DNA from: a virus
Lineage: Duplodnaviria; Caudoviricetes
Length of the DNA: 64,000 nt
Reading direction: 5' to 3' (one strand)
Virus record (IMG/VR): IMGVR_UViG_2918987250_000001
Span: 32,001-96,000 of that record
Both the position numbers and the translations under genes were made by a program. Positions within the stretch are counted from its first letter, which is position 1; each line of letters opens with the position of its first letter. Shown piece by piece: positions 1 to 64,000 of the stretch. The notes below the pieces were generated by a model. It did not search any database. It had not been told where the DNA came from and worked only from the letters and a program-made list of their open reading frames with translations.

Positions 1-804
1 GGTCTTGACCCCGCGGTGCCGCTCCAGCCGGTCGGCTGCGGCCTTCACGTCGCGCACGAGCTCGCCGATGGTCTTCGGGTGCAGGTCGCGTGCCGCGTTG
101 AACCACGCCCACGGCTCGGAGAGCTTCACGTTGCGGGTGACGGCGTTCATGATGTCGGCCGCATCCGCGCCGCCTTCCTCGTAGAGGGTCGGCGTCACCA
201 CGAGCGTCGGCAGGCTGAGCTCGTCCGCGAGCTTCAGCGCCTTGACGTTCTGCGTGTCCCAGTAGGGCGTGTCGATCGGCACCAGCGAGACGAACGTATT
301 AGAAGCGCTCAGAGCGTCGGCGCAGCGCTGCATGATCTGCGGTGCGTTCGCGTGATGCACGACGCTATGCGAGCAGCTAGACGCAATCGCAGCGTCAGCC
401 GAAGTCACATTCGCAAGCTCAGCGAACAAGTCTTCGAACGAGAGCTTGGGGACGTTGTAGAAGCGGTCCTCGGAGTTGGCCTTCGAGAGCAGCCGGTAGA
501 GCGCCATGAGCCCGGCCTGGCTCAGCACGTAGTAGGTGAGGAAGAACTCGGGCGGCGCCTTCTTGTCCTCCTTGGTCTTGCGCCAGGAGGGGTCGTCCAC
601 GAGCCGCAGCCGGCAGCCGATGACGGGCTTCAATCCCGCCTTGCCGGCCTTCTGGGAGAGCTCGATGAGGGCCGTGACCGACATCGTGTCGGTCACGCCC
701 ACAGCCTTCGCGCCGGCCCCGGCCGCGCGGTCAACGAGCTTGTCGATGGCGAGGATGCTCTCACCGATGGAGAAGTTTGACCGTGCGGCCAGGATCGCGT
801 GCAT
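1..804 (-). CDS. dnaE: DNA polymerase III alpha subunit, N-terminal PHP domain (runs off window edge)
   Basis: Manual translation from ATG at 804 (TAATG overlap with upstream gene): MHAILAARSNFSIGESILAIDKLVDRA...AVGVTDTMS...KAGLKPVIGCRL, the typical DnaE PHP start. Absent from the ORF track because it is truncated. Confidence 0.9.
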   Translation of the reverse strand, partial: MHAILAARSNFSIGESILAIDKLVDRAAGAGAKAVGVTDTMSVTALIELSQKAGKAGLKPVIGCRLRLVDDPSWRKTKEDKKAPPEFFLTYYVLSQAGLMALYRLLSKANSEDRFYNVPKLSFEDLFAELANVTSADAAIASSCSHSVVHHANAPQIMQRCADALSASNTFVSLVPIDTPYWDTQNVKALKLADELSLPTLVVTPTLYEEGGADAADIMNAVTRNVKLSEPWAWFNAARDLHPKTIGELVRDVKAAADRLERHRGVKT

Positions 805-3504: not shown

Positions 3505-3641
3505 GCGTTGGGATCTCCGTTCCTGTGAGCGCGTCGCGCTCTCTCTGTGTGCATTGCTGTTATCGCTGATCGCGTCGCGGGAAGCAAGTCAGTCCTGACT
3601 TATCCCGCGACGCCCCGCAGCGATGCGGATGTGGTGAGCGC

Positions 3642-6960: not shown

Positions 6961-7329
6961 TGTAATTCTCCTGAGCTGCTATGGGGTGCTCGGGGCTGTT
7001 GCATGTTCTGGCTCTGCATTCGATTTCTCTTCATTCGATGCAGAGACGATATAGCAGCTAGAGCGCGGGTTTCGTCGGTGCCGTGCGATATGGCAGAGAA
7101 AACCCGTGTTTGTCGGATAAGTCAACGCTGACTTGACAGGTTCCCTCAAAATTTCCGACGCGAAGGTGTGGCGCTGACACAACCTAAGATGCCTCATCGA
7201 ATTTTTCCATCGAATCCGCATCCGATTCTCGATTGGTTCCCTCGACCAACTCGTAACGCCTGTGCTCTAAGCCGAATCGCTCAGCGGCCAGCCGTGGAGA
7301 CAACACTTGTTCCAATCGGAGTGTGAGGA

Positions 7330-13820: not shown

Positions 13821-13911
13821 GGCTCCTCTCTGTGTCTGTGTGCGCGTCAGTCGCTACAACGTGACTATAGCGAACGCTTCTCGGGATGTGAGTCAGTCCT
13901 GACTTATTCGT

Positions 13912-16974: not shown

Positions 16975-17262
16975 TTAGGCCCCGATCAGGCCATAGGCGA
17001 TGAACCCGCTCCCCTTCAGGAAAGTCAGCGCTGACTTACCCTTACCGTCAGACCCAGGCAGCTCGACCTTCACGGCGAACTGATCCGCAGCCACGAGCAC
17101 GCCGGTCTTGGTGGCGCCGTCGGGCAGCAGCAGGGCGATGCCCTTGCCGTAGTGCGCCTTCAGCTCGTCCTGGTGGTTCCAGGCCTTCGGGCGGTTCGGG
17201 CTGCGGGGAGCGGTCGGACCACGGCGTTCGAACTGCACGGGGCCGCGTGAGGGGTGCTTCAT
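16975..17262 (-). CDS. Hfq/Sm-like RNA-binding protein
   Basis: HQDEL...IALLLPDGATKTGVLVAADQFAVKV...TFLKG aligns by eye with Hfq Sm1 (LQD.FL...I.LVNG.KL.G....FD.F.VLL) and Sm2 (VYKH). Confidence 0.55.
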   Translation of the reverse strand: MKHPSRGPVQFERRGPTAPRSPNRPKAWNHQDELKAHYGKGIALLLPDGATKTGVLVAADQFAVKVELPGSDGKGKSALTFLKGSGFIAYGLIGA

Positions 17263-17319
17263 CGTCTCTCTCGTGATTGCTGCTCGCGAATGACTATAGC
17301 GAGCGCGTTTCGGGGTTTC

Positions 17320-18895: not shown

Positions 18896-18970
18896 GGGTT
18901 CGACTCCAAGGTCGGTGGGGATCAAGAGCGTGCTAGATAAGTAAGCACTGACTTATCATAGCACGCAAGC

Positions 18971-19561
18971 TCAGAGCTTTGATGCGGCGTCGAAAAGAGC
19001 CTGGAGCTGCGTGGCGTTCAGGTTGAGCTCCTCGGAGATCGCCTGGACGTAGGGGTTGGTGATCTCCCAGAAGGTCGCCGAGTCCCAGTAGATCTCCACC
19101 GGCGGATAGGGGTGGCCCTTCACGGCGGCGAGCGCGTGGTCGATCAGGCCGGCGTTGAACAGCGCCGTCTTCGCCTGCGCGGCCGAGACCTGGCGCACCT
19201 TGGGCGCGGGCCGGTCGTAGAAGGTGCCGGTGCCGATCTCGCAAAGCTTCTGCTCGAAGGGCTTGTGCGGCCGGTCCTCGTCGCCCTCGTAGCCGAGAAT
19301 CTCGATCAGCGTGTGCCCGGCCTGCGGGAACAGGAGCGAGGGGTCGCGCACGATGGACTGGACGAGAAGACCGTCCTCGGTCGGCATCAGCACGCCCTTG
19401 AGGCTGCCCTCAGTCCAGCTCTCGGGGTTGCGGGCGAAGACATACCAGTCGAGGCCGTCGGAGACGCGCCGCGCGAACATGGCCGAGGGCGGTGCGCCGG
19501 CCGGAGGCTCGTCCGGCACGTAGCGCTCCCAGATGCCGTGATCGATGATCTCGTAGCCCAT
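18971..19561 (-). CDS. putative tail fibre assembly chaperone
   Basis: Follows the tail fibre gene; DGLDWY, RQVSAAQAKTAL, LFDAA motifs typical of fibre-associated proteins. Confidence 0.6.
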   Translation of the reverse strand: MGYEIIDHGIWERYVPDEPPAGAPPSAMFARRVSDGLDWYVFARNPESWTEGSLKGVLMPTEDGLLVQSIVRDPSLLFPQAGHTLIEILGYEGDEDRPHKPFEQKLCEIGTGTFYDRPAPKVRQVSAAQAKTALFNAGLIDHALAAVKGHPYPPVEIYWDSATFWEITNPYVQAISEELNLNATQLQALFDAASKL

Positions 19562-51226: not shown

Positions 51227-52510
51227 CTAGACAGAAACACCCAGCACCTTGATCTTGCGGACGGGGAACTTGAAGTCGATGCAGTAGCCCAGCGCGTCGG
51301 CCGGGTGCTCGACGCCGGCAGACTTGTCCACCTCGCGCGAGCCCGGCTTGTAGATCGTCTGCTCGAAGGCCGAGATCGTGTGCTTGCAGCCCCGGTCCAC
51401 CCGCAGCTTGATCGTGCCGTCGGCCGCCTTGAGCATCCGGTTCACCGCGTTGACGCGATCCGACACGGGCGGGTGCTTGCGCTTATACTGGAGCTTGCGG
51501 AAGCCGCCCTGGCGCAGGATGTCGAGGTCGCTCTCGCCGCGGCCGTGCCCGCGCTGCGCGCCGGCCGGGTCGGGGAAGATGATGACCTGCTTCTGCTGCT
51601 TGAAGAAGCGCCGATCGAGCTCCGTGCAGACCTCGGCCGTCGAGGAGCCGAACAGGATCGCCTCGCCGACGATCCAGACCTCGCCGTTGTCCTGCGGCTG
51701 CATGATGACCGAGGACATCGGGTCGATGTTGAAGTCCTGGCCCACCCAGATCGGCAGGTGCGGGTTGAAGGCGTAGTCGCCGACATGCTGGTTGCGGTCG
51801 AAGGCGTAGTAGACCCGGCCCGACATCGTCTCGAAGGACGCCTCGAACTCCTGACGGAAGCTCTTCTCGTCGAGGTTCTGGCGCGCGGCCGCGATCTCCT
51901 CGACCGGGATGAACGGCGAGGTGATGGTCGGGAACTGCCAGCTCTTGTGGTCGTTGCGGCGCAGCCGGCCCTTGCTGTCGCGGTAGGTCTCCCCGCGCTG
52001 GCCCTTCATGTAGACATCGTAGAGCCAGTTGTAGGCCTTCGGCGTCCCGATGATGATGGCCTTGCCGCGCGTCGAGGTGAGCGTCGGGTAGAGGACCTTG
52101 AACCAGGTGTCCGGCTCGATGTCCTGGGCCTCGTCGATGATGACCAGGTTGAGCGCGACGCCGCGCAGCGAGTCCGGCTTGTCCGCGCCCTTGAGCACGA
52201 TGCGTGAGCCGTTCACGAGCCGGATGGTGAGCCGGGTCTCGTTGACCGAGCGGATCCACTTGGCCGGGATCGAGTCCTTGATCTCGTCCCACATGATGCC
52301 GCGGGCCATCCCGTAGGTCGGCGCCACATACCAGATGAGCTGCTTGGGCTTGGCGGCAGCGGCCTGGACCGCGAGGATGCGCGCGAGCTGCGTCTTGCCC
52401 CAACGACGGCCGGCAACGACCACACGCACGCGGCGCGGGTCGTTGAAGACCTTCGACTGCCCCTTGTGGAGCGTGAACGTGTTGGGCGCGACGGTGAGCA
52501 GGCTACTCAT
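51227..52510 (-). CDS. terL: terminase large subunit
   Basis: AGRRWGKT, LRG, IIDEA, GTPK, FRQEFEASF, GQDFN, HPADALGY. Confidence 0.95.
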   Translation of the reverse strand: MSSLLTVAPNTFTLHKGQSKVFNDPRRVRVVVAGRRWGKTQLARILAVQAAAAKPKQLIWYVAPTYGMARGIMWDEIKDSIPAKWIRSVNETRLTIRLVNGSRIVLKGADKPDSLRGVALNLVIIDEAQDIEPDTWFKVLYPTLTSTRGKAIIIGTPKAYNWLYDVYMKGQRGETYRDSKGRLRRNDHKSWQFPTITSPFIPVEEIAAARQNLDEKSFRQEFEASFETMSGRVYYAFDRNQHVGDYAFNPHLPIWVGQDFNIDPMSSVIMQPQDNGEVWIVGEAILFGSSTAEVCTELDRRFFKQQKQVIIFPDPAGAQRGHGRGESDLDILRQGGFRKLQYKRKHPPVSDRVNAVNRMLKAADGTIKLRVDRGCKHTISAFEQTIYKPGSREVDKSAGVEHPADALGYCIDFKFPVRKIKVLGVSV

Positions 52511-53198
52511 CGTCGTCGTCCTCGATCACCGCCTCGTCGTCATCCTCGCCGGCGAGCGCGGCGATGGCCGCGTCGTCGCTCTCGTCGAGGATCTCGGCGT
52601 CGTCCTGCTCCTGGGCGTCGCGGCGCGCCTTGACCTCGGCATCGGTGAGGTCGCGGATCGTGAGGGCCGGCAGCTCCTTGTCATCGACCTCGCCATGCGC
52701 ATCGAGCAGGGTGAAGCGCTCGTCGCGGGCGGCGATGAGGATCTTCATCGTCCGCTCGAGGGTCTTGATGTTCTTCTCCTCGGTGGCGAACGGCCGGTCT
52801 TCCTTCTTGGCGTTGGCGATCAGCGCCATGGCCTGCCGGGCGATGGTCTCGGTCCAGAGCAGGTGCTCGCCCTTGGCCTTGTCGATCTTCTCCTTGCGCT
52901 CGCGCGTGAGCTCCTCGGCCGAGCGCTCGACGGCCTTCTTGGCCGCCTCGGTGGAGGCGGCCTTGACCTCGTGCGCCCGCGAGCCCCGGCGGATGCCGGC
53001 GCGCTTGATGCGCTTCATCAGCGTCTCGGGCTTGATCGAGAACCGGGAGCAGATCTCGGCAGCACTCGCGGTGCCGAGCTCCCAGATGTCCACGATCTGA
53101 GCCCACTCGGCCGGGGTGAGACGACGCGCGGAACCGGCCGCATCCTCGTCACCGAGGGCAGCATCGTCTTCCGGGTCCTTCGTCACCTCAGTCAGCAC
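52503..53198 (-). CDS. terS: terminase small subunit
   Basis: N-terminal HTH, overlaps the terL start, acidic tail. Confidence 0.75.
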   Translation of the reverse strand: MLTEVTKDPEDDAALGDEDAAGSARRLTPAEWAQIVDIWELGTASAAEICSRFSIKPETLMKRIKRAGIRRGSRAHEVKAASTEAAKKAVERSAEELTRERKEKIDKAKGEHLLWTETIARQAMALIANAKKEDRPFATEEKNIKTLERTMKILIAARDERFTLLDAHGEVDDKELPALTIRDLTDAEVKARRDAQEQDDAEILDESDDAAIAALAGEDDDEAVIEDDDDE

Positions 53199-53317: not shown

Positions 53318-53587
53318 TCACACCGATGATCCGGGGCGGAACTCCCGGTAAGCCTTCAGCGTCGGAGCGATGTAGAGCTTCCGCTTCTCTCCATACTTCC
53401 GGGAGAGGAAGCCGTGCTGCTCCAGATACCGGATGGAGAACTGAAGGGCCTGGGGCGTCACCGCCGGCCCGTAGCTCAGCGACGCCTTGAGGTCGTGAAA
53501 GGCGATGTCGCTGCCGGCGTCGGCCGCGGCGAGCACCAGACCCATGATCTCGTGCTGCTTGTCGGTGCCGGCGAAGGTCTCAGGCAT
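53318..53587 (-). CDS. small winged-helix protein
   Basis: TDKQHEIM...ALQFSIRYLEQHGFLSRK. Confidence 0.65.
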   Translation of the reverse strand: MPETFAGTDKQHEIMGLVLAAADAGSDIAFHDLKASLSYGPAVTPQALQFSIRYLEQHGFLSRKYGEKRKLYIAPTLKAYREFRPGSSV

Positions 53588-54536
53588 CGAACGGCACCTT
53601 CAGCTTCTCGGTCGGCTTCTGCCAGTCGAAGGCGGACAGCGGCAGGCGCTCCGGCATCTCCCGGCCGTGGTCGGGGTTCATCCAGACGCCGTAGAGCGGC
53701 GAGGCGAGCGTCATCTGGGCGATCGACTTCAACACCTCGCGCGGGGTCATGGCAGCGACACGCTCCCGGCCCTTGCCGCGGTTGTTGCCGGTCTTCTCGA
53801 GCGCCGAGTGCCGGTAGTAGAAGGCGCGGGCGTCGGCGACGATCACCTCGGCCTGCTCCGCGGGCAGGCGCGCCAGCTCCTCGACCATCCCCTCGAAGTC
53901 GCCGGGGCTGCTCTCGAAGTGGCTGCGGAAGAACTTGAGCCCCTTGTCGAACCGGTTGGCGTTCATCGGCTTGACGAACCGGAACCCTGCCTTCTGGCCG
54001 AAGTGGTTGAACTTCGACATCGACGACTGGATCTCCATGATCCGGTTGCCCTCGAGGCGCGAGACCAGGTTCATCATCCGGTAGCCGGCGCCGATCCCGC
54101 GGAACATCGTGTCGATCACGAAGCGGGAGATGACGCGGAAGTTCTGGTTGATGAAGAGGTAGCGGTCGGTGTTGGTGATGACCGTGTCGCCACCGCCCGG
54201 CTTGATCTTCGGGAACGCGACGTGGCGCTCCTTCAGCAGGCCCTTCGGGTTGGCCGTGACCAGGACGCCGATCGTCTGGCCGTCGAGCGTGAGCTTCCAG
54301 AAGCGCGGCCCGATGGAGAGGTTCTCGGCCTTGTAGTGCAGGTCGTGCAGGAGGTCCCAGTCGGCCTTGGTGCCCCGCTCCACGAACATCTGGTCGATCA
54401 GCGAAAACCGGGGCGCAGGGCTCTCGATGCGCTCGATCAGCGTCTCTGGTGCTTCGAACGCGCGGACGCGCTCACCGGGCAACGTCGCGAAGCCCAGCGC
54501 ATCTCCGGCGTCGAAGTTGATCGTGTCGAGCGACAT
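53580..54536 (-). CDS. GNAT-superfamily (Mom-like) acetyltransferase, candidate DNA-modifying enzyme
   Basis: LHY near the N-terminus; ISRFVIDTMFRGIGAG acetyl-CoA motif A; M.KFN.F..KAGF. Confidence 0.75.
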   Translation of the reverse strand: MSLDTINFDAGDALGFATLPGERVRAFEAPETLIERIESPAPRFSLIDQMFVERGTKADWDLLHDLHYKAENLSIGPRFWKLTLDGQTIGVLVTANPKGLLKERHVAFPKIKPGGGDTVITNTDRYLFINQNFRVISRFVIDTMFRGIGAGYRMMNLVSRLEGNRIMEIQSSMSKFNHFGQKAGFRFVKPMNANRFDKGLKFFRSHFESSPGDFEGMVEELARLPAEQAEVIVADARAFYYRHSALEKTGNNRGKGRERVAAMTPREVLKSIAQMTLASPLYGVWMNPDHGREMPERLPLSAFDWQKPTEKLKVPFDA

Positions 54537-54987: not shown

Positions 54988-55361
54988 GACACGACCTCCC
55001 AGTCCTGGGCCAGCAGGTCGGACTGCGAGCACAGCCACGGCACCCGGTTCTTGCAGGCCGTGAACATGAAGACGTAGGGCAGGCTCATCTTCGAGTGGGC
55101 GTCCGGCACCTGGAGCTCGAGATACATCCCCTTGCCGTTCCAGCCGGCGCGGGCGACACGCAGGCCGGCCCGGAGCGCGGCGACAGCCTGCCCGATGTTG
55201 AGCGCGCCGTTCTTCTCGACCGCGGCGTCCTCGAAGGAGACCTTCGTCACCTTGCGCACGAGCCCGAGCTCCTCGACGGGCGGCCGAGCGTTGCGCGGGG
55301 CGAACGTGATGCTGCCGATCGTCAGATCGCCGCCGGCCTTGACCTTCATGTCCACGTTCAT
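54984..55361 (-). CDS. DUF2829 / Tad2-like anti-Thoeris sponge protein
   Basis: IGQAVAAL.AG.RVARAGWNGKGMYL...PY......VPW..SQSDLLAQDW. Confidence 0.8.
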   Translation of the reverse strand: MNVDMKVKAGGDLTIGSITFAPRNARPPVEELGLVRKVTKVSFEDAAVEKNGALNIGQAVAALRAGLRVARAGWNGKGMYLELQVPDAHSKMSLPYVFMFTACKNRVPWLCSQSDLLAQDWEVVS

Positions 55362-56014
55362 GCTGCTGCCTTCTCGACTTCGACGCGCTCGCGGAAGCGC
55401 TTGGTGAGGGTGAGGGAGGGACCGAGCTCTTCCTTGAGGTCGGTGTGGGTGGTCGCGACCATCAGGGTCTTGCCGGAGCGGCGCGCGATCTTCTGGACGT
55501 TGGAGGCGACGACCTTCGCGGTGACGCGGTCGAGGACGGCGCCGAACTCGTCGGCAATCCAGACATCGGCGCCGGATTCCAGCACCTTCGCGAGCTTGAG
55601 GCGGTAGCGCTGGCCGTCGGAGAGCTCGGACGGCTTGCGGATGTAGATCCAGGCGTCGGAGATGCCGGCGAGCGCGAGGAGGTAGGTCGCCTCCTGGGTG
55701 TTCTTGCCGACCTGCTCGATCACCGGGCGCTCGTCGAGGCTGACGCCGTCGATGTCGGCGACGACCTTGCCCTCGGCGCGCATCATCGCCGTGAGCTCAC
55801 GCAGCAGCAGCGACTTGCCCGAGCCCGACTGGCCCTGGATGTAGACGACATCGCCGGCCCGGATCTCGACCTGGAGCCCGTCGTAGATGACGAACTCCTT
55901 GTCGGAGAGGCCCAGGCCGAAGCTCTCGGCGATCTCGAGCACGCGCGGGGTGCGCTCCACCGACGAGGTGAAGCTCTTGGAGATCGTGTAGGTGTTCTGG
56001 GTGATGATGGTCAT
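55358..56014 (-). CDS. soluble ABC-family ATPase
   Basis: GQSGSGKS, LSDGQRYR, IADEF, VATTH; no permease partner nearby. Confidence 0.88.
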   Translation of the reverse strand: MTIITQNTYTISKSFTSSVERTPRVLEIAESFGLGLSDKEFVIYDGLQVEIRAGDVVYIQGQSGSGKSLLLRELTAMMRAEGKVVADIDGVSLDERPVIEQVGKNTQEATYLLALAGISDAWIYIRKPSELSDGQRYRLKLAKVLESGADVWIADEFGAVLDRVTAKVVASNVQKIARRSGKTLMVATTHTDLKEELGPSLTLTKRFRERVEVEKAAA

Positions 56015-56507: not shown

Positions 56508-57185
56508 TCAGATGCCGAACTCGGTGAGGAACGCCATGAAGGCTTCCGCACCCTTCTTGCCGGTCTCCGTCTGGATACGGCTCATGAAGGCCTTCACGCG
56601 CCGGCTGTCGGCGACCGTGACCTTGGAGAAGCCGAAGGCCTCGGCGACGCGCTGGGGCGCCTCGTCCACGGCGATGGCCGCGGCCTCGTTCTCTTCCTTC
56701 TGCTCCTCGACCGCCTCGGCGATGTCGTCCACGAAGGCGTCATCGAGCGTGGCCGCGAGGTCGTCGGTCATGAAGGAGAGCTCCTTCTCGTCGAACCCGA
56801 GCCAGTCCATCTCGAGCCCGGCGTCGGAGAGCGCCGTGAGGCCCTCGCGCACGAGGTCGGTGTCGTAGATCTGGTGCTGGACCCGGTTGTCCGAGAGGCG
56901 CAGCGCGTCGGCCTCGGCATCGGTGATGCCGTGCATGACGACGACCGGCACGGTCTTGCGCCCGAGCTCGATCGCAGCCAGGCGGCGCCCGTGGCCGGCG
57001 ATGATCTCGCCATCCTCGCGCACGACGATCGGCTGCGTCCAGCGGCCGGAGCCCTTGATCGCGGCAGCGAGCTTCTTCGTGCTGTCCTTGGAGTGCTTCT
57101 TCGCGTTCTTGGCGTAGGGCACCAGGCGCTCAACCGGCCAGTGCTCGACGACCATCTCACCGGGCGGGGTCTTAGGCGTCGTCAC
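56508..57185 (-). CDS. ParB/Srx N-terminal domain protein
   Basis: LVPYAKNAKKH, PIVV, IIAGHGRRLAA, LRLSDNR. Confidence 0.88.
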   Translation of the reverse strand: MTTPKTPPGEMVVEHWPVERLVPYAKNAKKHSKDSTKKLAAAIKGSGRWTQPIVVREDGEIIAGHGRRLAAIELGRKTVPVVVMHGITDAEADALRLSDNRVQHQIYDTDLVREGLTALSDAGLEMDWLGFDEKELSFMTDDLAATLDDAFVDDIAEAVEEQKEENEAAAIAVDEAPQRVAEAFGFSKVTVADSRRVKAFMSRIQTETGKKGAEAFMAFLTEFGI

Positions 57186-57360
57186 GGGACCATTCCTTCA
57201 GCATGTCGTAGAGATCGGCATCGCTCGGTTCGGTCTCATCGACCGTGGGCTCGAAGTTCTCTCCGGCCCGGCACCCGAGGCATTCCCGCTTGATGCGGGT
57301 CGGGTCGAAGTGCTCGCACTGGGAGCACTCATCGAAGCGAGGCTCGATCCTGATCTTCAC
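57172..57360 (-). CDS. small Cys-rich (CxxC..CxxC) protein
   Basis: ECSQCEHF...ECLGC. Confidence 0.6.
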   Translation of the reverse strand: MKIRIEPRFDECSQCEHFDPTRIKRECLGCRAGENFEPTVDETEPSDADLYDMLKEWSRDDA

Positions 57361-58073
57361 AGGGGCGCTCCGAAGCCGTCGTCCTCGCTGGGCTCGTCGT
57401 CTTCGACGGCCGGCGCAGCAGTCGCGCCCGAGAGCAGGAGGAAGCAGAGAGCGTCGCCGGCATTCATGAGGGCGGTGGCGCCCTCGAAACCCTGGCGCTT
57501 GGCCGTCCGGGTGATGAGGTCCGTCAGGCGCTCCGCATCGGCGAGCGGCACCTGGAAGCGCATCATCGCGTGGGTCTTGGGAGCGGCCGCCGCGGGAGCG
57601 ACTTCTTCCGGCTCGCTCGTTTCGGACTCGGTCTCGAGCAAATCGAGATCATCGAGCGCTATAGAAGACGACGAGAAGATCGACGTGATCTCCTCATCAG
57701 AGAAAGGCATCGTGTCCTGGATTTCCTCCCCGTTCACCAGCGTCTTGAGAAGAGCAGCCAGCTCGCTCGCGTCGTCCTCGCCGTAGCGGGCGTTGTCGAT
57801 GAGCCCGATCTTCTTGGCCTGATCGTCTGCGATCGGCCCGACGTTGATGACGGGGATCTCCTTCAGTCCCAGATCCAGGCAGACCTTCCAGCGGTGCTCG
57901 CCCCCGATAATCTCGAGGTCGCCGCCGGCCTCCCGCACCACGACGGGCTTGAACAGTCCGTGCTGACGAACGGACGCGGTGAGACGCGCCTCGTTGTCGG
58001 GGCTCATGTGGTTGGTGTTCCACGGATTCGGCCGCAGGGCCGTCGGCGGAAGGGTCAGGGCCTTGGGATACAT
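57357..58073 (-). CDS. ParB/Srx N-terminal domain protein
   Basis: LRPNPWNTN, KPVVVR, IIGGEHRW; likely start ATG at 58073. Confidence 0.88.
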   Translation of the reverse strand: MYPKALTLPPTALRPNPWNTNHMSPDNEARLTASVRQHGLFKPVVVREAGGDLEIIGGEHRWKVCLDLGLKEIPVINVGPIADDQAKKIGLIDNARYGEDDASELAALLKTLVNGEEIQDTMPFSDEEITSIFSSSSIALDDLDLLETESETSEPEEVAPAAAAPKTHAMMRFQVPLADAERLTDLITRTAKRQGFEGATALMNAGDALCFLLLSGATAAPAVEDDEPSEDDGFGAPL

Positions 58074-61658: not shown

Positions 61659-62321
61659 ATGACGGCCATGCAGACCCTCGCCGTGCTCTCCCAGAAGGGA
61701 GGCGTAGGCAAATCCACGATCGCTCGCCTCATGGCGACCGCCTATGCCGGCGCCCAGTGGCGCGTGAAGATCGCCGACTTCAACGTGAAGCAGCTCACCA
61801 GCGTGGACTGGTCCGCGAGCCGCATGGCCGCCGAGATCCAGCCCGAGGTGCCGGCCGAGGCCTTCTCCAGCGTCAAGCAGGCGCTCCGGCAGAACCTCCA
61901 CTACGACCTCATGGTCTTCGACGGGAAGCCCGACTCCGACGTGACCAGCCTGGAGATCGCCCGCGAGAGCGACGTGATCCTCCTGCCGGCCGGCGTGAGC
62001 GGTGACGACCTGCGCCCGCAGGTGAAGTTCGCCCACGAGCTCGTGTCCCGCGGCGTGGACCGGGCGCGCATCCACTTCGTCATCAACAAGACCCTCGAGA
62101 GCGCAGCCTCGATCTCCGACGCCCGCGGCTTCATCGAAGCGGCCGGCTACCGGGTGCTCGCGACGGATCTACCCTCCAAGACGGGCTACCAGCTCGCGCA
62201 GAACATGGGCCGCGCCATCTCCGAGAGCGCCTTTGCCACCCTGAACGAGCGGGCCGATGCTCTGGCCCAAGAGGTCGTGGATCTCATGACCACGCACGCC
62301 GGCACGAAGAGGGTCGCCTGA
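61659..62321 (+). CDS. parA: ParA partition ATPase (short, type Ib)
   Basis: SQKGGVGKST, IADF, MVFDGKP; no N-terminal HTH. Confidence 0.9.
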   Translation: MTAMQTLAVLSQKGGVGKSTIARLMATAYAGAQWRVKIADFNVKQLTSVDWSASRMAAEIQPEVPAEAFSSVKQALRQNLHYDLMVFDGKPDSDVTSLEIARESDVILLPAGVSGDDLRPQVKFAHELVSRGVDRARIHFVINKTLESAASISDARGFIEAAGYRVLATDLPSKTGYQLAQNMGRAISESAFATLNERADALAQEVVDLMTTHAGTKRVA

Positions 62322-62578
62322 TGGTCACGGCTCCCCCTCCCCCGCGCACGCTCGCCAATGCGGGTCGTCTCAAGCCCGAGAGCGCCCCGGCGCCGGCGGA
62401 AGCGCCCAAGAACCTGTCCACGTCCAACCAGGGCAAGTGGGTGCCGCTCACCTTCAAGGTCACGGAGGACGAGCGCTACGCCTACCGGCTCGAGGCTGCG
62501 AAACGGCGCATGAACCTCAAGGAGCTATTCGAGGCCGCGCTCAAGACCTACCGCGAGCAATACCCGCTCCAGGAGTGA
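62321..62578 (+). CDS. ParG-like ribbon-helix-helix partition protein
   Basis: Flexible N-terminus, VPLTFKV.....AYRLEAAKRRMNLKEL; coupled to parA. Confidence 0.7.
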   Translation: MVTAPPPPRTLANAGRLKPESAPAPAEAPKNLSTSNQGKWVPLTFKVTEDERYAYRLEAAKRRMNLKELFEAALKTYREQYPLQE

Positions 62579-62582
62579 CGCC

Positions 62583-62807
62583 ATGCACATGACCCACGCC
62601 GACCTGTGCGCGATCTACGCGAGGATGACGCCCGCGGAGCGGGCGGAAGCCCAAGCGGAGGCGCGCTCCAAGGGTGTTGAGGTTCACGAGCTCCTGGCCC
62701 GAGCGGTCGAGAGCCTCATCCAAGGGTATGATCGCCAGACCGTCGCGGTGCTGAAATCCTGGCATACGAGCGCCGAGCGACCGAGCGCCGTGGTGTCGAG
62801 CGTCTGA
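62583..62807 (+). CDS. hypothetical protein
   Basis: GGAG RBS, 74 aa. Confidence 0.5.
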   Translation: MHMTHADLCAIYARMTPAERAEAQAEARSKGVEVHELLARAVESLIQGYDRQTVAVLKSWHTSAERPSAVVSSV

Positions 62808-62880
62808 GCGACCGAGAGCCGAGCGACTGAGCGCCAAGGGTCCGATCACCGGGAGTTCCGGGGCCTATCCCAAGGGTCCG
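62767..62880. repeat. degenerate 7-8 bp (C/T)GAGCG(A)C repeats plus CCAAGGGTCCG x2
   Basis: Visible tandem array after the par cassette. Confidence 0.55.
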
Positions 62881-62977
62881 GGAATATGTGCTGCCGAGAC
62901 CCGAGGCATAGCCCTCGAGCAGACGCGATTTATCTAAGACTTCGTAACTTTACGCTAACTTTTCCGCAAAACACTAT

Positions 62978-63005
62978 GCGAGCGCGCTAATGTTAACGCG
63001 CTCGC
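62978..63005. terminator. hairpin downstream of the 63014..63709 gene
   Basis: GCGAGCGCG-N10-CGCGCTCGC. Confidence 0.5.
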
Positions 63006-63013
63006 TTCTAATG

Positions 63014-63709
63014 TTATGCGAAGTCTTCAAACATTAGATCATTGCACACTGCGAGAAACTGCTTTAACAGTGCGAACTCTTCGAAGCGATAATAGACGAT
63101 ATGTGCATTTGCGGTGCGTTGCGCTTCGCTTACATCATGCGTCTTATTCGCTAGATGCTTGACGATAGCGACGTGATAATCTTGCGCATCTTTGGTGCAA
63201 GCGAGCACTTCGACATAAACGTCTTGCATGATAAGCGCAGTGTAGCGCTCTGACATAGCGTCAACGTTATCGAGTTGCGTCGCGTCAGTGCGCATGTCAG
63301 AGAAAGCGTTAAACGCTTCTTCGTTAAAGCTGCAATCTATGCGATATTGCGCTTCGACGTTGCTAAGCGCGCGCTCTAGCGTGTGATGCACCGACGAAAG
63401 CAACACATTGATGCTTGACGCTTCGCTGTCGTTTTCGACGTAGCACGTCTCACAGATAAACGCGATGTGTTCAGCGTCGCTGAAAGTCACCGCAAAATAG
63501 TTGCTGTCGTTTTCGTTAGAGAACGTCGCGACAGAGCACAAGTCGTTATAGTCTTGAAGCGACAGCATCACAGGTGTTTTTGTGTCGTTGAGCTTGTTAT
63601 GAATGAAGCGCGCGAAGTCTAGCGCGACAACATCACGTTGCGCTTTCAGCGGTGCATCAGCGATCTCGAAAGAGACAGCATTCATCTCATGAATATCAGC
63701 GAGCGTCAT
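63014..63709 (-). CDS. hypothetical protein lacking Gly and Trp (GG/CC-depleted region)
   Basis: 231-aa ORF with 0 G, 0 W and 2 P; own promoter. Confidence 0.75.
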   Translation of the reverse strand: MTLADIHEMNAVSFEIADAPLKAQRDVVALDFARFIHNKLNDTKTPVMLSLQDYNDLCSVATFSNENDSNYFAVTFSDAEHIAFICETCYVENDSEASSINVLLSSVHHTLERALSNVEAQYRIDCSFNEEAFNAFSDMRTDATQLDNVDAMSERYTALIMQDVYVEVLACTKDAQDYHVAIVKHLANKTHDVSEAQRTANAHIVYYRFEEFALLKQFLAVCNDLMFEDFA

Positions 63710-63745
63710 AGCGTGTGCTTTCTGTGGTGCGTTGTTGACTAGAGA

Positions 63746-63774
63746 GTTTTACTGTCGTGCTTGTGCGGTGTCAA
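63746..63774 (-). promoter_or_regulatory. sigma70 promoter overlapped by the palindromic operator
   Basis: TTGACA-17 bp-TAAAAC; operator at 63772-63789. Confidence 0.6.
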
Positions 63775-63786
63775 GTCAGCGCTGAC

Positions 63787-64000
63787 TTATTTCTGCGCTT
63801 CAAGCACTTTCTTCGCGCGATCAATGCGCATCACATGCGTGTGACGCTCGCGCTTGAAGCGCTCGACGTTTGCAAGATGCGCTTTATGCGTCACGTCTAG
63901 TTCAGCGGAAATCTCAGCTAGACGCTTTTGCGATGCGTCAAGCATCGCTTGCGCGCGCTCGACTGTAAGCGCATTCTTGCGCTTGATATTGTTCGCTTCG
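63787..64000 (-). CDS. C-terminal part of a hypothetical coiled-coil protein
   Basis: EANNIKRKNALTVERAQAML...KKVLEAQK*; no G, P or W in 70 aa. Confidence 0.65.
   Translation of the reverse strand, partial: EANNIKRKNALTVERAQAMLDASQKRLAEISAELDVTHKAHLANVERFKRERHTHVMRIDRAKKVLEAQK

Follow-up and report, generated by a model that had tools for sequence, protein, structure and literature searches.

What keeps a stretch of phage DNA almost free of the dinucleotides GG and CC, and what does this reveal about the element that carries it? The window analysed here, 64,000 nucleotides long, corresponds to positions 32001-96000 of a 117,522-bp IMG/VR virus record that is classed as linear, and the closest relatives of the element are circular plasmids. 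Its terminase large subunit (TerL) was 63% identical to that of the Rhizobium phage RHEph10, 57.5% to that of SSU5 (over 99% of its length), 56% to that of nickie and 90% to that of a Methylobacterium oryzae plasmid, and we therefore assigned the element to the SSU5-like phage-plasmids. The genome length lies within the range of SSU5-like genomes (~100-120 kb with an SSU5-type terminase and virion module), and the sequence similarities suggest that the host is probably a Methylobacterium. Background on the SSU5 supergroup, the AB group, RHEph10-pLM21S1 and the Nickievirus phage-plasmids can be found in PMC7969092. A plasmid partition module was present, with ParA (E 2.6e-24, below the curated cut-off) and a small partner, as in pAMS5a. 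CCAAGGG repeats lie 3' of this cassette, at the island boundary (window positions 62660-62880), and are a candidate centromere.

The first-pass annotation had described a near-absence of GG and CC between window position 62915 and the window end. We recovered exactly ten sites (seven GG and three CC) at the positions it gave, against 131 expected from composition, and all other 1-kb bins of the window had observed/expected (O/E) ratios of 0.66-0.90. The whole island covers genome positions 94915-97303 (2389 bp), extending 1303 bp past the window end, and contains 30 GG/CC sites for about 320 expected (O/E 0.09, versus 0.78 in the remaining genome). Generic palindrome avoidance, already dismissed in that annotation, was likewise rejected here, O/E values below 0.55 being confined to GG/CC within the island. 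This purge, which we call tier 1, affects both strands and reaches into the non-coding flanks. Its imprint on the proteins was as previously described, both for the 231-aa ORF (Table 1) and for the 70-aa fragment, which is devoid of Gly, Pro and Trp; the start of the 138-aa ORF lies 203 bp past the window end. When the three island proteins were re-coded with the codon usage of the genome, each gene acquired 58-81 GG+CC versus 4-6 observed, so that the constraint bears on DNA and not on amino-acid composition alone. Low G+C as a cause was rejected by both the composition-based expectation and the re-coding, and UV-dimer avoidance was ruled out, TT not being depleted (O/E 1.16). None of the 25 listed strain substitutions in the island creates a GG or CC versus 5.1 expected (0 of 2000 simulations; the list is partial). 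The purge is real, under ongoing purifying selection and family-wide.

Table 1. Coordinates of the features discussed in the text (window positions unless marked as genome positions).
Feature	Position	Strand	Remark
GG/CC-free promoter window (tier 3, CCCG-N10/11-GCKATA class)	3523..3579	-	
GG/CC-free promoter window (tier 3)	7011..7067	-	
GG/CC-free promoter window (tier 3)	13826..13883	-	
GG/CC-free promoter window (tier 3)	17254..17312	-	
GG/CC-free window (tier 3) 5' of PhoH-like gene	18920..18986	-	gene named by eye
Terminase large subunit and putative small subunit	51227..53198	-	3' of operon
GNAT-fold protein with RGxGxG motif, candidate DNA acyltransferase	53580..54467	-	model and motif
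Stand-alone ABC ATPase of the candidate modification operon	55358..56014	-	PF00005, phrog_293
ParB-N-like protein 2 of the operon	56508..57185	-	
ParB-N-like protein 1, first gene of the operon	57357..58073	-	operon runs into terS/terL
parA and small partner (plasmid partition cassette)	61668..62578	+	adjoins island
In-window part of the island (tier 1, both strands)	62915..64000	.	GG/CC counts
231-aa acidic ORF (pI 4.5; Gly 0, Trp 0, Pro 2), accessory	63014..63709	-	without family match
Palindrome AAGTCAGCGCTGACTT, candidate operator	63773..63788	.	one of ~42 genome copies
138-aa basic ORF (Gly 0, Trp 0, Pro 1), accessory	63787..64000	-	3' part in window; genome 95787-96203
Conserved 206-aa winged-helix core gene	genome 96323-96943 (L001 4324-4944)	-	past window end
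Tier-2 gene, 98 aa, GG-free on coding strand only	genome 97635-97931		past window end
Tier-2 gene, 204 aa, GG-poor on coding strand only	genome 98252-98866		past window end
Long paralog of the core gene, normal composition	genome 99189-100115		outside island

In other strains, the boundary and the 206-aa gene are kept and the 231- and 138-aa ORFs are absent or replaced. The predicted structure of this core protein (pLDDT 92) consists of a helical domain and a C-terminal winged helix; residues ~86-205 matched winged helix-turn-helix proteins of the MarR, PadR, ArsR and H1 types (best Z 8.0, rmsd 2.9-3.5, 80-83 residues aligned), with no single family standing out. Its 41 nearest homologs contain 0.2% Gly, 0.2% Pro and no Trp. 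A long, Gly/Pro-rich paralog sits 2.2 kb from the core gene. Over the last 190 residues, 54 of 101 short homologs are without Gly, Pro and Trp, and at least 12 such residues are found in each of the 66 long paralogs; the fold thus tolerates Gly and Pro and does not need their loss. Homology to the core family held for the island genes of the Rhizobium elements and was probable for that of Acinetobacter (E 4e-8); it was not demonstrated for those of nickie, SSU5, Cupriavidus and Stenotrophomonas.

The island ORFs had no usable match in PHROGs, Pfam, PADLOC, PDB sequences or the ESM Atlas, and an Rfam search of the island gave no credible match. Two of the products of the presumed early genes, the 231-aa one and the 204-aa one (L001 6253-6867, pI 4.2), are acidic ORFans and possibly DNA mimics or anti-defence proteins. 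We also observed a near-consensus sigma70 promoter within the island, TTGACG-16-TATACT (L001 5119-5146, plus strand), directed away from the core gene and with no clear ORF downstream; it could drive a small RNA, for which Rfam had no match.

The few surviving sites were informative. It had been proposed that only GGTG and CGGAAA are tolerated, and that the survivors mark a context exempt from recognition. The former did not hold: GGTA, GGTC and GGTT are present as well, and what the survivors share is a T five bases before GG (29 of 30) and a T after it (26 of 30). The latter stood in its principle but not in its wording, the exempt context being T-N4-GG-T and not GGTG. This context was realised 26 times among 142 one-step neighbours (versus 0.23 elsewhere, i.e., the neutral rate), V-N4-GG-T in none of 435 cases and T-N4-GG-V in 3 of 461. 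T-N4-GG-T also ends 10 of the 33 GG/CC-free windows found outside the island, nearly all of them distant from it, versus a background of 3-7%, and the exemption thus appears to act genome-wide. The surviving sites are recent gains: orthologs at 65-78% identity use other codons at these places. The pattern TYTKYGGT, chosen post hoc, was over-represented beyond the neutral expectation (16 in the island versus 8 elsewhere); this enrichment counts against the explanation that we favor below, because pure tolerance does not account for it. We disfavored the idea that the survivors are explained solely by a Chi-like or island-specific binding site, the context being tolerated at distant promoters too.

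Two further tiers of depletion were recognized beyond the island. In the two tier-2 genes, coding-strand GG is absent (98-aa gene) or reduced to five copies (204-aa gene) and CC is normal; GG spanning codon junctions occurs 0 times versus 10.5 in the former and once versus 21.8 in the latter. The one-strand depleted zones take in the promoters of these genes. In both promoters, GCGCACAAA-N15-TAWAAC replaces the canonical -35 box (L001 5990-6017 and 6906-6934, minus strand), an arrangement that resembles activator-dependent middle promoters and has a similar counterpart in one relative (L024).

Tier 3 corresponds to short windows dispersed through the genome. Apart from the island, the sequence contains 33 GG/CC-free runs that reach 48 bp or more, versus 6.7 expected, four control dinucleotide pairs giving 0-1. 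Most of these runs lie directly 5' of genes, including by eye those for ThyX, SSB, CobS and PhoH. Two fall within SbcC-like and DNA-polymerase-like genes and possibly represent internal promoters or origins; in each, the run is broken by a single site (genome 18588-18758, 170 bp, and genome 32342-32448, i.e., window 342-448, 107 bp, respectively). When 12 promoters were defined by the motif CCCG-N10/11-GCKATA alone, their cores contained 7 GG/CC versus 70 in shuffled sequences. Around the -10 box, the coding strand is depleted of GG between about -40 and +40 (0 versus 13.1 in -20..0 and 5 versus 16.5 in -40..-20), and of CC mainly between 0 and +20.

Two other repeated elements were observed in the genome. 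About 42 copies of the palindrome AAGTCAGC-N-CTGACTT (up to 2 mismatches), many of which overlap promoters, make it a candidate repressor operator or stoperator. Between genome positions 97.3 and 101.8 kb (L001 5350-9730), G+C-rich spacers between early genes contain 23 of the 36 genomic CCATGG copies together with repeats such as GCCGTTCC(T/G)AATTT, and the islands of pAMS5a and of the M. oryzae plasmid are bordered by CCATGG-rich spacers of a similar kind; a packaging or injection signal and deliberately dense targets are candidate roles for them.

A purged island of the GG/CC type was seen in about 20 relatives, which come from alpha-, beta-, and gamma-proteobacteria. Islands of 0.8-1.7 kb were found in pAMS5a, pRlX6, RHph_Y2_11, V1VFA-S, nickie, Faunimonas and about 10 metagenomic contigs, some of them nearly perfect (1 site in 1682 bp in pAMS5a, 0 in 1279 bp in V1VFA-S, 3 in 1275 bp in nickie). 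They surround the core gene or a positionally equivalent gene and, irrespective of gene orientation, start ~200 bp ahead of the start codon (extending from about -200 to +700). The banned word has a GG core with lineage-specific flanks. When 1830 degenerate motifs were screened without bias at the syntenic gene, the control stretch scoring half as high, a word with this core emerged in Acinetobacter (GG, 5 versus 91), Cupriavidus (HGGM, 0 versus 54), Moellerella (SGGB/VGGB) and SSU5 (MGGB, 0 versus 51). MGGB likewise ranked first in close kin of SSU5 from Klebsiella (2 versus 57) and E. coli (1 versus 52), and in nickie and Rhizobium, as in Acinetobacter, all GG is banned. One lineage tolerates ACGGT only (16 of 16 sites). 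The elements of Methylobacterium-type hosts differ among themselves, with a full purge, the T-N4-GG-T exemption or coding-strand-only depletion, which points to a phage determinant. One-strand patches in the relatives sit at promoters and 5' ends and follow the direction of transcription (16 concordant versus 2 discordant in a hand tally).

The purge is less complete in some members. The M. oryzae clade (L023 4900-5700, L031 1850-2700) has the core gene and the intact operon described below, with a GNAT that is itself intact and 75% identical, and shows coding-strand GG depletion only, which suggests a natural variant of weaker or narrower specificity. Stenotrophomonas and Xanthomonas members have only short patches (0.13-0.4 kb), and no island was present within at most 10 kb on either side of the GNAT gene in the IMG/VR relatives L017-L021. 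The recurrence of the island, its promoter-linked satellites and the lineage-specific words across the SSU5-like family nevertheless bears out the earlier proposal that something acts on GG/CC, and the purged genes look, as presumed from sequence, like the first to be expressed.

The best candidate for a modifier is the ParB-ParB-ABC-ATPase-GNAT operon, located directly upstream of the terminase in every relative whose packaging region was retrieved. Its ABC ATPase matched PF00005 (E 1e-13) and phrog_293 (E 3e-47), and the same operon was present in the relatives retrieved, among which none lacking it was found; since the family inherited both operon and island from its ancestor, their co-occurrence does not amount to an independent correlation. 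The GNAT gene was detected in exactly 31 INPHARED records, the same as those of the close TerL relatives, and in 967 plasmid records, mostly from Klebsiella, Escherichia, Acinetobacter, Enterobacter, Yersinia, and Salmonella. The AF2 model of the GNAT (pLDDT 87; invariant motif R123-G124-x-G126-x-G128) matched 140 chains at Z of at least 8, the best 50 of which are all of GNAT type. Mu Mom (Z 10.5, rmsd 3.8, 150 residues aligned) was tied with generic GNATs, and TmcA/NAT10, which matched weakly (Foldseek E 1.5e-4 to 4.5e-4, TMq about 0.3), with small-molecule GNATs. At the sequence level Mom was not matched, a 75-sequence profile giving no match among PDB sequences at E≤1. The target of Mom is adenine; in the present element GG/CC is the word avoided, and none of the A-centred dinucleotides shows a purge. 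In the GNAT tree the motif classes occupy different branches, which is not evidence of co-evolution because kin share motif labels. Compared with the consensus of relatives with a full purge, the GNAT of the window carries P51S, M138L, A193G, and Q250A (numbered from the ATG at 54467), four candidates for the origin of the T-N4-GG-T exemption.

We also considered unrelated phages with comparable genes. No clear early island was seen in Jace, which has a related ABC ATPase with an adjoining ParB (best LLR 19 versus 23 for the control), nor in P12024S, which has an ATPase-GNAT fusion (LLR 29, within a long gene, versus 23). In P12024S a 686-aa gene contains a KGG-poor stretch (1 versus 34; L045 30796-32004), borderline and possibly compositional.

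Taken together, we consider it reasonably probable, judging from these sequence patterns, that virion DNA bears a mark at a word with a GG/CC core, probably at the C of CC, and that the DNA read first is kept free of the mark. The island would be an immediate-early transcription unit, recoded by selection to lose the target of the phage's own hypermodification. Late in lytic growth, the terminase-linked operon would acylate packaged DNA at this word, probably protecting it from restriction. In the next infection the mark would hinder the unaided host RNA polymerase, and therefore the first unit, encoding the winged-helix regulator and read before any phage protein is made, would have to lack the target on both strands, the genes that follow it on the template strand (no CC), and the promoters of replication genes over the ~55 bp where the polymerase opens DNA and starts. 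The winged-helix product, or replication, would then lift the constraint for the remaining gene bodies, and sites skipped by the enzyme (T-N4-GG-T in this element) would drift back in. Under this model the C of CC is somewhat favored as the marked base, since the template strand loses CC and keeps GG. Template-strand adducts are those that usually block elongation. A more specific version, in which the ParB/ABC/GNAT machine acylates cytosine in CC-containing virion words to produce a new base used as a timer, and the winged-helix product licenses transcription of marked DNA, is offered tentatively, being possible rather than probable. Several observations count against the proposed mechanism: the partial depletion in the M. 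oryzae clade despite an intact GNAT, the short patches of the Stenotrophomonas/Xanthomonas members and the lack of a clear island in Jace and P12024S. To our knowledge, moreover, host RNA polymerase can read through the major-groove marks known so far (T4 glc-hmC, Mu 6-NcmdA).

The most credible alternative, although an unlikely one, is that a host defence reads GG/CC (a type I-F CC or Cas9 NGG PAM, a modification-dependent or nicking nuclease, or a DNA-modifying toxin) and that the island, as the first DNA to enter or to be opened, escapes until a counter-defence is made. The purging of restriction sites from first-injected phage DNA is known (PMC12455610), the 231- and 204-aa proteins are acidic like DNA mimics, and the relative Nican01 was called "DTR (long)" (PMC11256456), so that a leading region may exist. 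However, the GG core is constant across alpha-, beta-, and gamma-proteobacterial hosts while its flanks differ among elements of Methylobacterium-type hosts, and scattered ~55-bp promoter windows or whole-gene purges of one strand would not shield a target-rich genome. The unrelated phages Jace and P12024S, from different hosts, are without a clear island, and PADLOC returned no match for the island proteins.

It is quite unlikely that the word-free island serves a DNA transaction (terminase cutting, duplication of a terminal repeat, circularisation or initiation of replication) or reflects a physical property of GG/CC steps. The two-stranded purge of tier 1 into non-coding flanks would suit such a role, as would the distance of the island from the packaging operon (a few kb to ~10 kb in the relatives examined), the long DTR reported for one relative, Nican01 (PMC11256456), and the flanking CCATGG-rich spacers. 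Yet the position of the island follows one gene family, whose promoter and ORF anchor it in any orientation, the satellites track promoters and transcription direction, and a physical property would not yield lineage-specific words.

Selection at the RNA level, whereby early messages would evade a GG-reading ribonuclease or an RNA-modifying toxin (of phage or host) through the avoidance of GG, appears very unlikely. It would explain why the stronger rule is always the absence of coding-strand GG, the only rule obeyed by tier-2 genes, but not why tier 1 and the +0 to +20 segment of promoters are purged of coding-strand CC as well, nor why GG is missing upstream of the -10 box, which is untranscribed. 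Still less probable is a phage-made mark deposited by another enzyme, with the ParB/ABC/GNAT operon acting on proteins or small molecules. The fold matches of the GNAT are mostly protein and small-molecule acetyltransferases, and the operon is nearly unchanged in the partially purged clade (3 clade-specific residues in the GNAT, 0 in the ABC ATPase); on the other hand, a crude motif scan found no DNA methyltransferase signature among the 157 called genes, and the operon has a late location, is present family-wide and corresponds to the predicted DNA-acylation type (PMC7824862). Finally, despite the abrupt drop in G+C from 66% to 52%, recent foreign insertion or mutational bias is hardly credible and the assembly chimera that the first-pass annotation had kept in view is refuted, a single contig from an independent sample crossing the left boundary with 2 differences, orthologous islands occurring in complete genomes, and the adjoining Gly/Pro-rich paralog showing that the fold does not need the loss of these residues.

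If the timer reading is true, the genome sequence records the specificity of the enzyme, the strand and the exemptions, lineage by lineage. A predicted phage DNA-modification system would gain a named word in each: MGGB/VCCK in the culturable phage SSU5, HGGM in Cupriavidus, and GG/CC of any context in nickie and in the Rhizobium phages. A protective mark in elements such as the plasmid records carrying the GNAT would bear on how mobile elements cross restriction and CRISPR barriers. The case further illustrates DNA-level selection strong enough to strip three amino acids (Gly, Pro, and Trp) from a protein family, and suggests a general route by which unknown modification motifs and the affected strand may be read from genome sequence alone.

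The element family, the predicted enzyme type and the avoidance of host restriction sites in early regions (PMC12455610) are already known; our literature search found no description of the island, its tiers, the modification, the target word or the terminus coordinates. With the SSU5-like family the element shares its size of 117 kb, the order helicase, ParB-ParB-ABC-GNAT and terS-terL, and the parA cassette; as an alphaproteobacterial relative, however, it does not belong to the curated enterobacterial SSU5 supergroup. A purged island is not mentioned for this family in the corresponding parts of PMC7969092.

A pair formed by a GNAT and an ABC ATPase has been predicted to acylate a DNA base, yielding a modification that is uncharacterised (PMC7824862, in a section summarising Iyer et al.). 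The present operon resembles this predicted system ("MK0520-type" in record annotations) in the location of the GNAT beside a stand-alone ABC ATPase, in a phage and in a packaging-linked operon, and differs from it by the split into two genes and the two ParB-N partners; that section proposes neither target motif nor base, whereas our data predict one. TmcA and NAT10, among the top Foldseek matches, are likewise ATPase-coupled GNATs, acylating cytosine N4, although their substrate is RNA and their ATPase is of the helicase type. NAT10 acts in a CCG context. Mu Mom is a late GNAT-fold enzyme that acylates the exocyclic amine of a base in double-stranded DNA (PMC13219725, PMC7261163). It works alone, on adenine and with Gly-tRNA, whereas the operon described here is multi-gene. 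We know of no target-free island in Mu. Phages T7 and T5 avoid restriction sites in their first-injected region. Restriction-site avoidance in first-injected DNA (PMC12455610) likewise produces a bounded early region without a word that is common elsewhere; in contrast, the purge described here concerns a word of 2-4 nucleotides, has cost a protein family three amino acids, is partly one-stranded and linked to promoters, and tracks the phage lineage.
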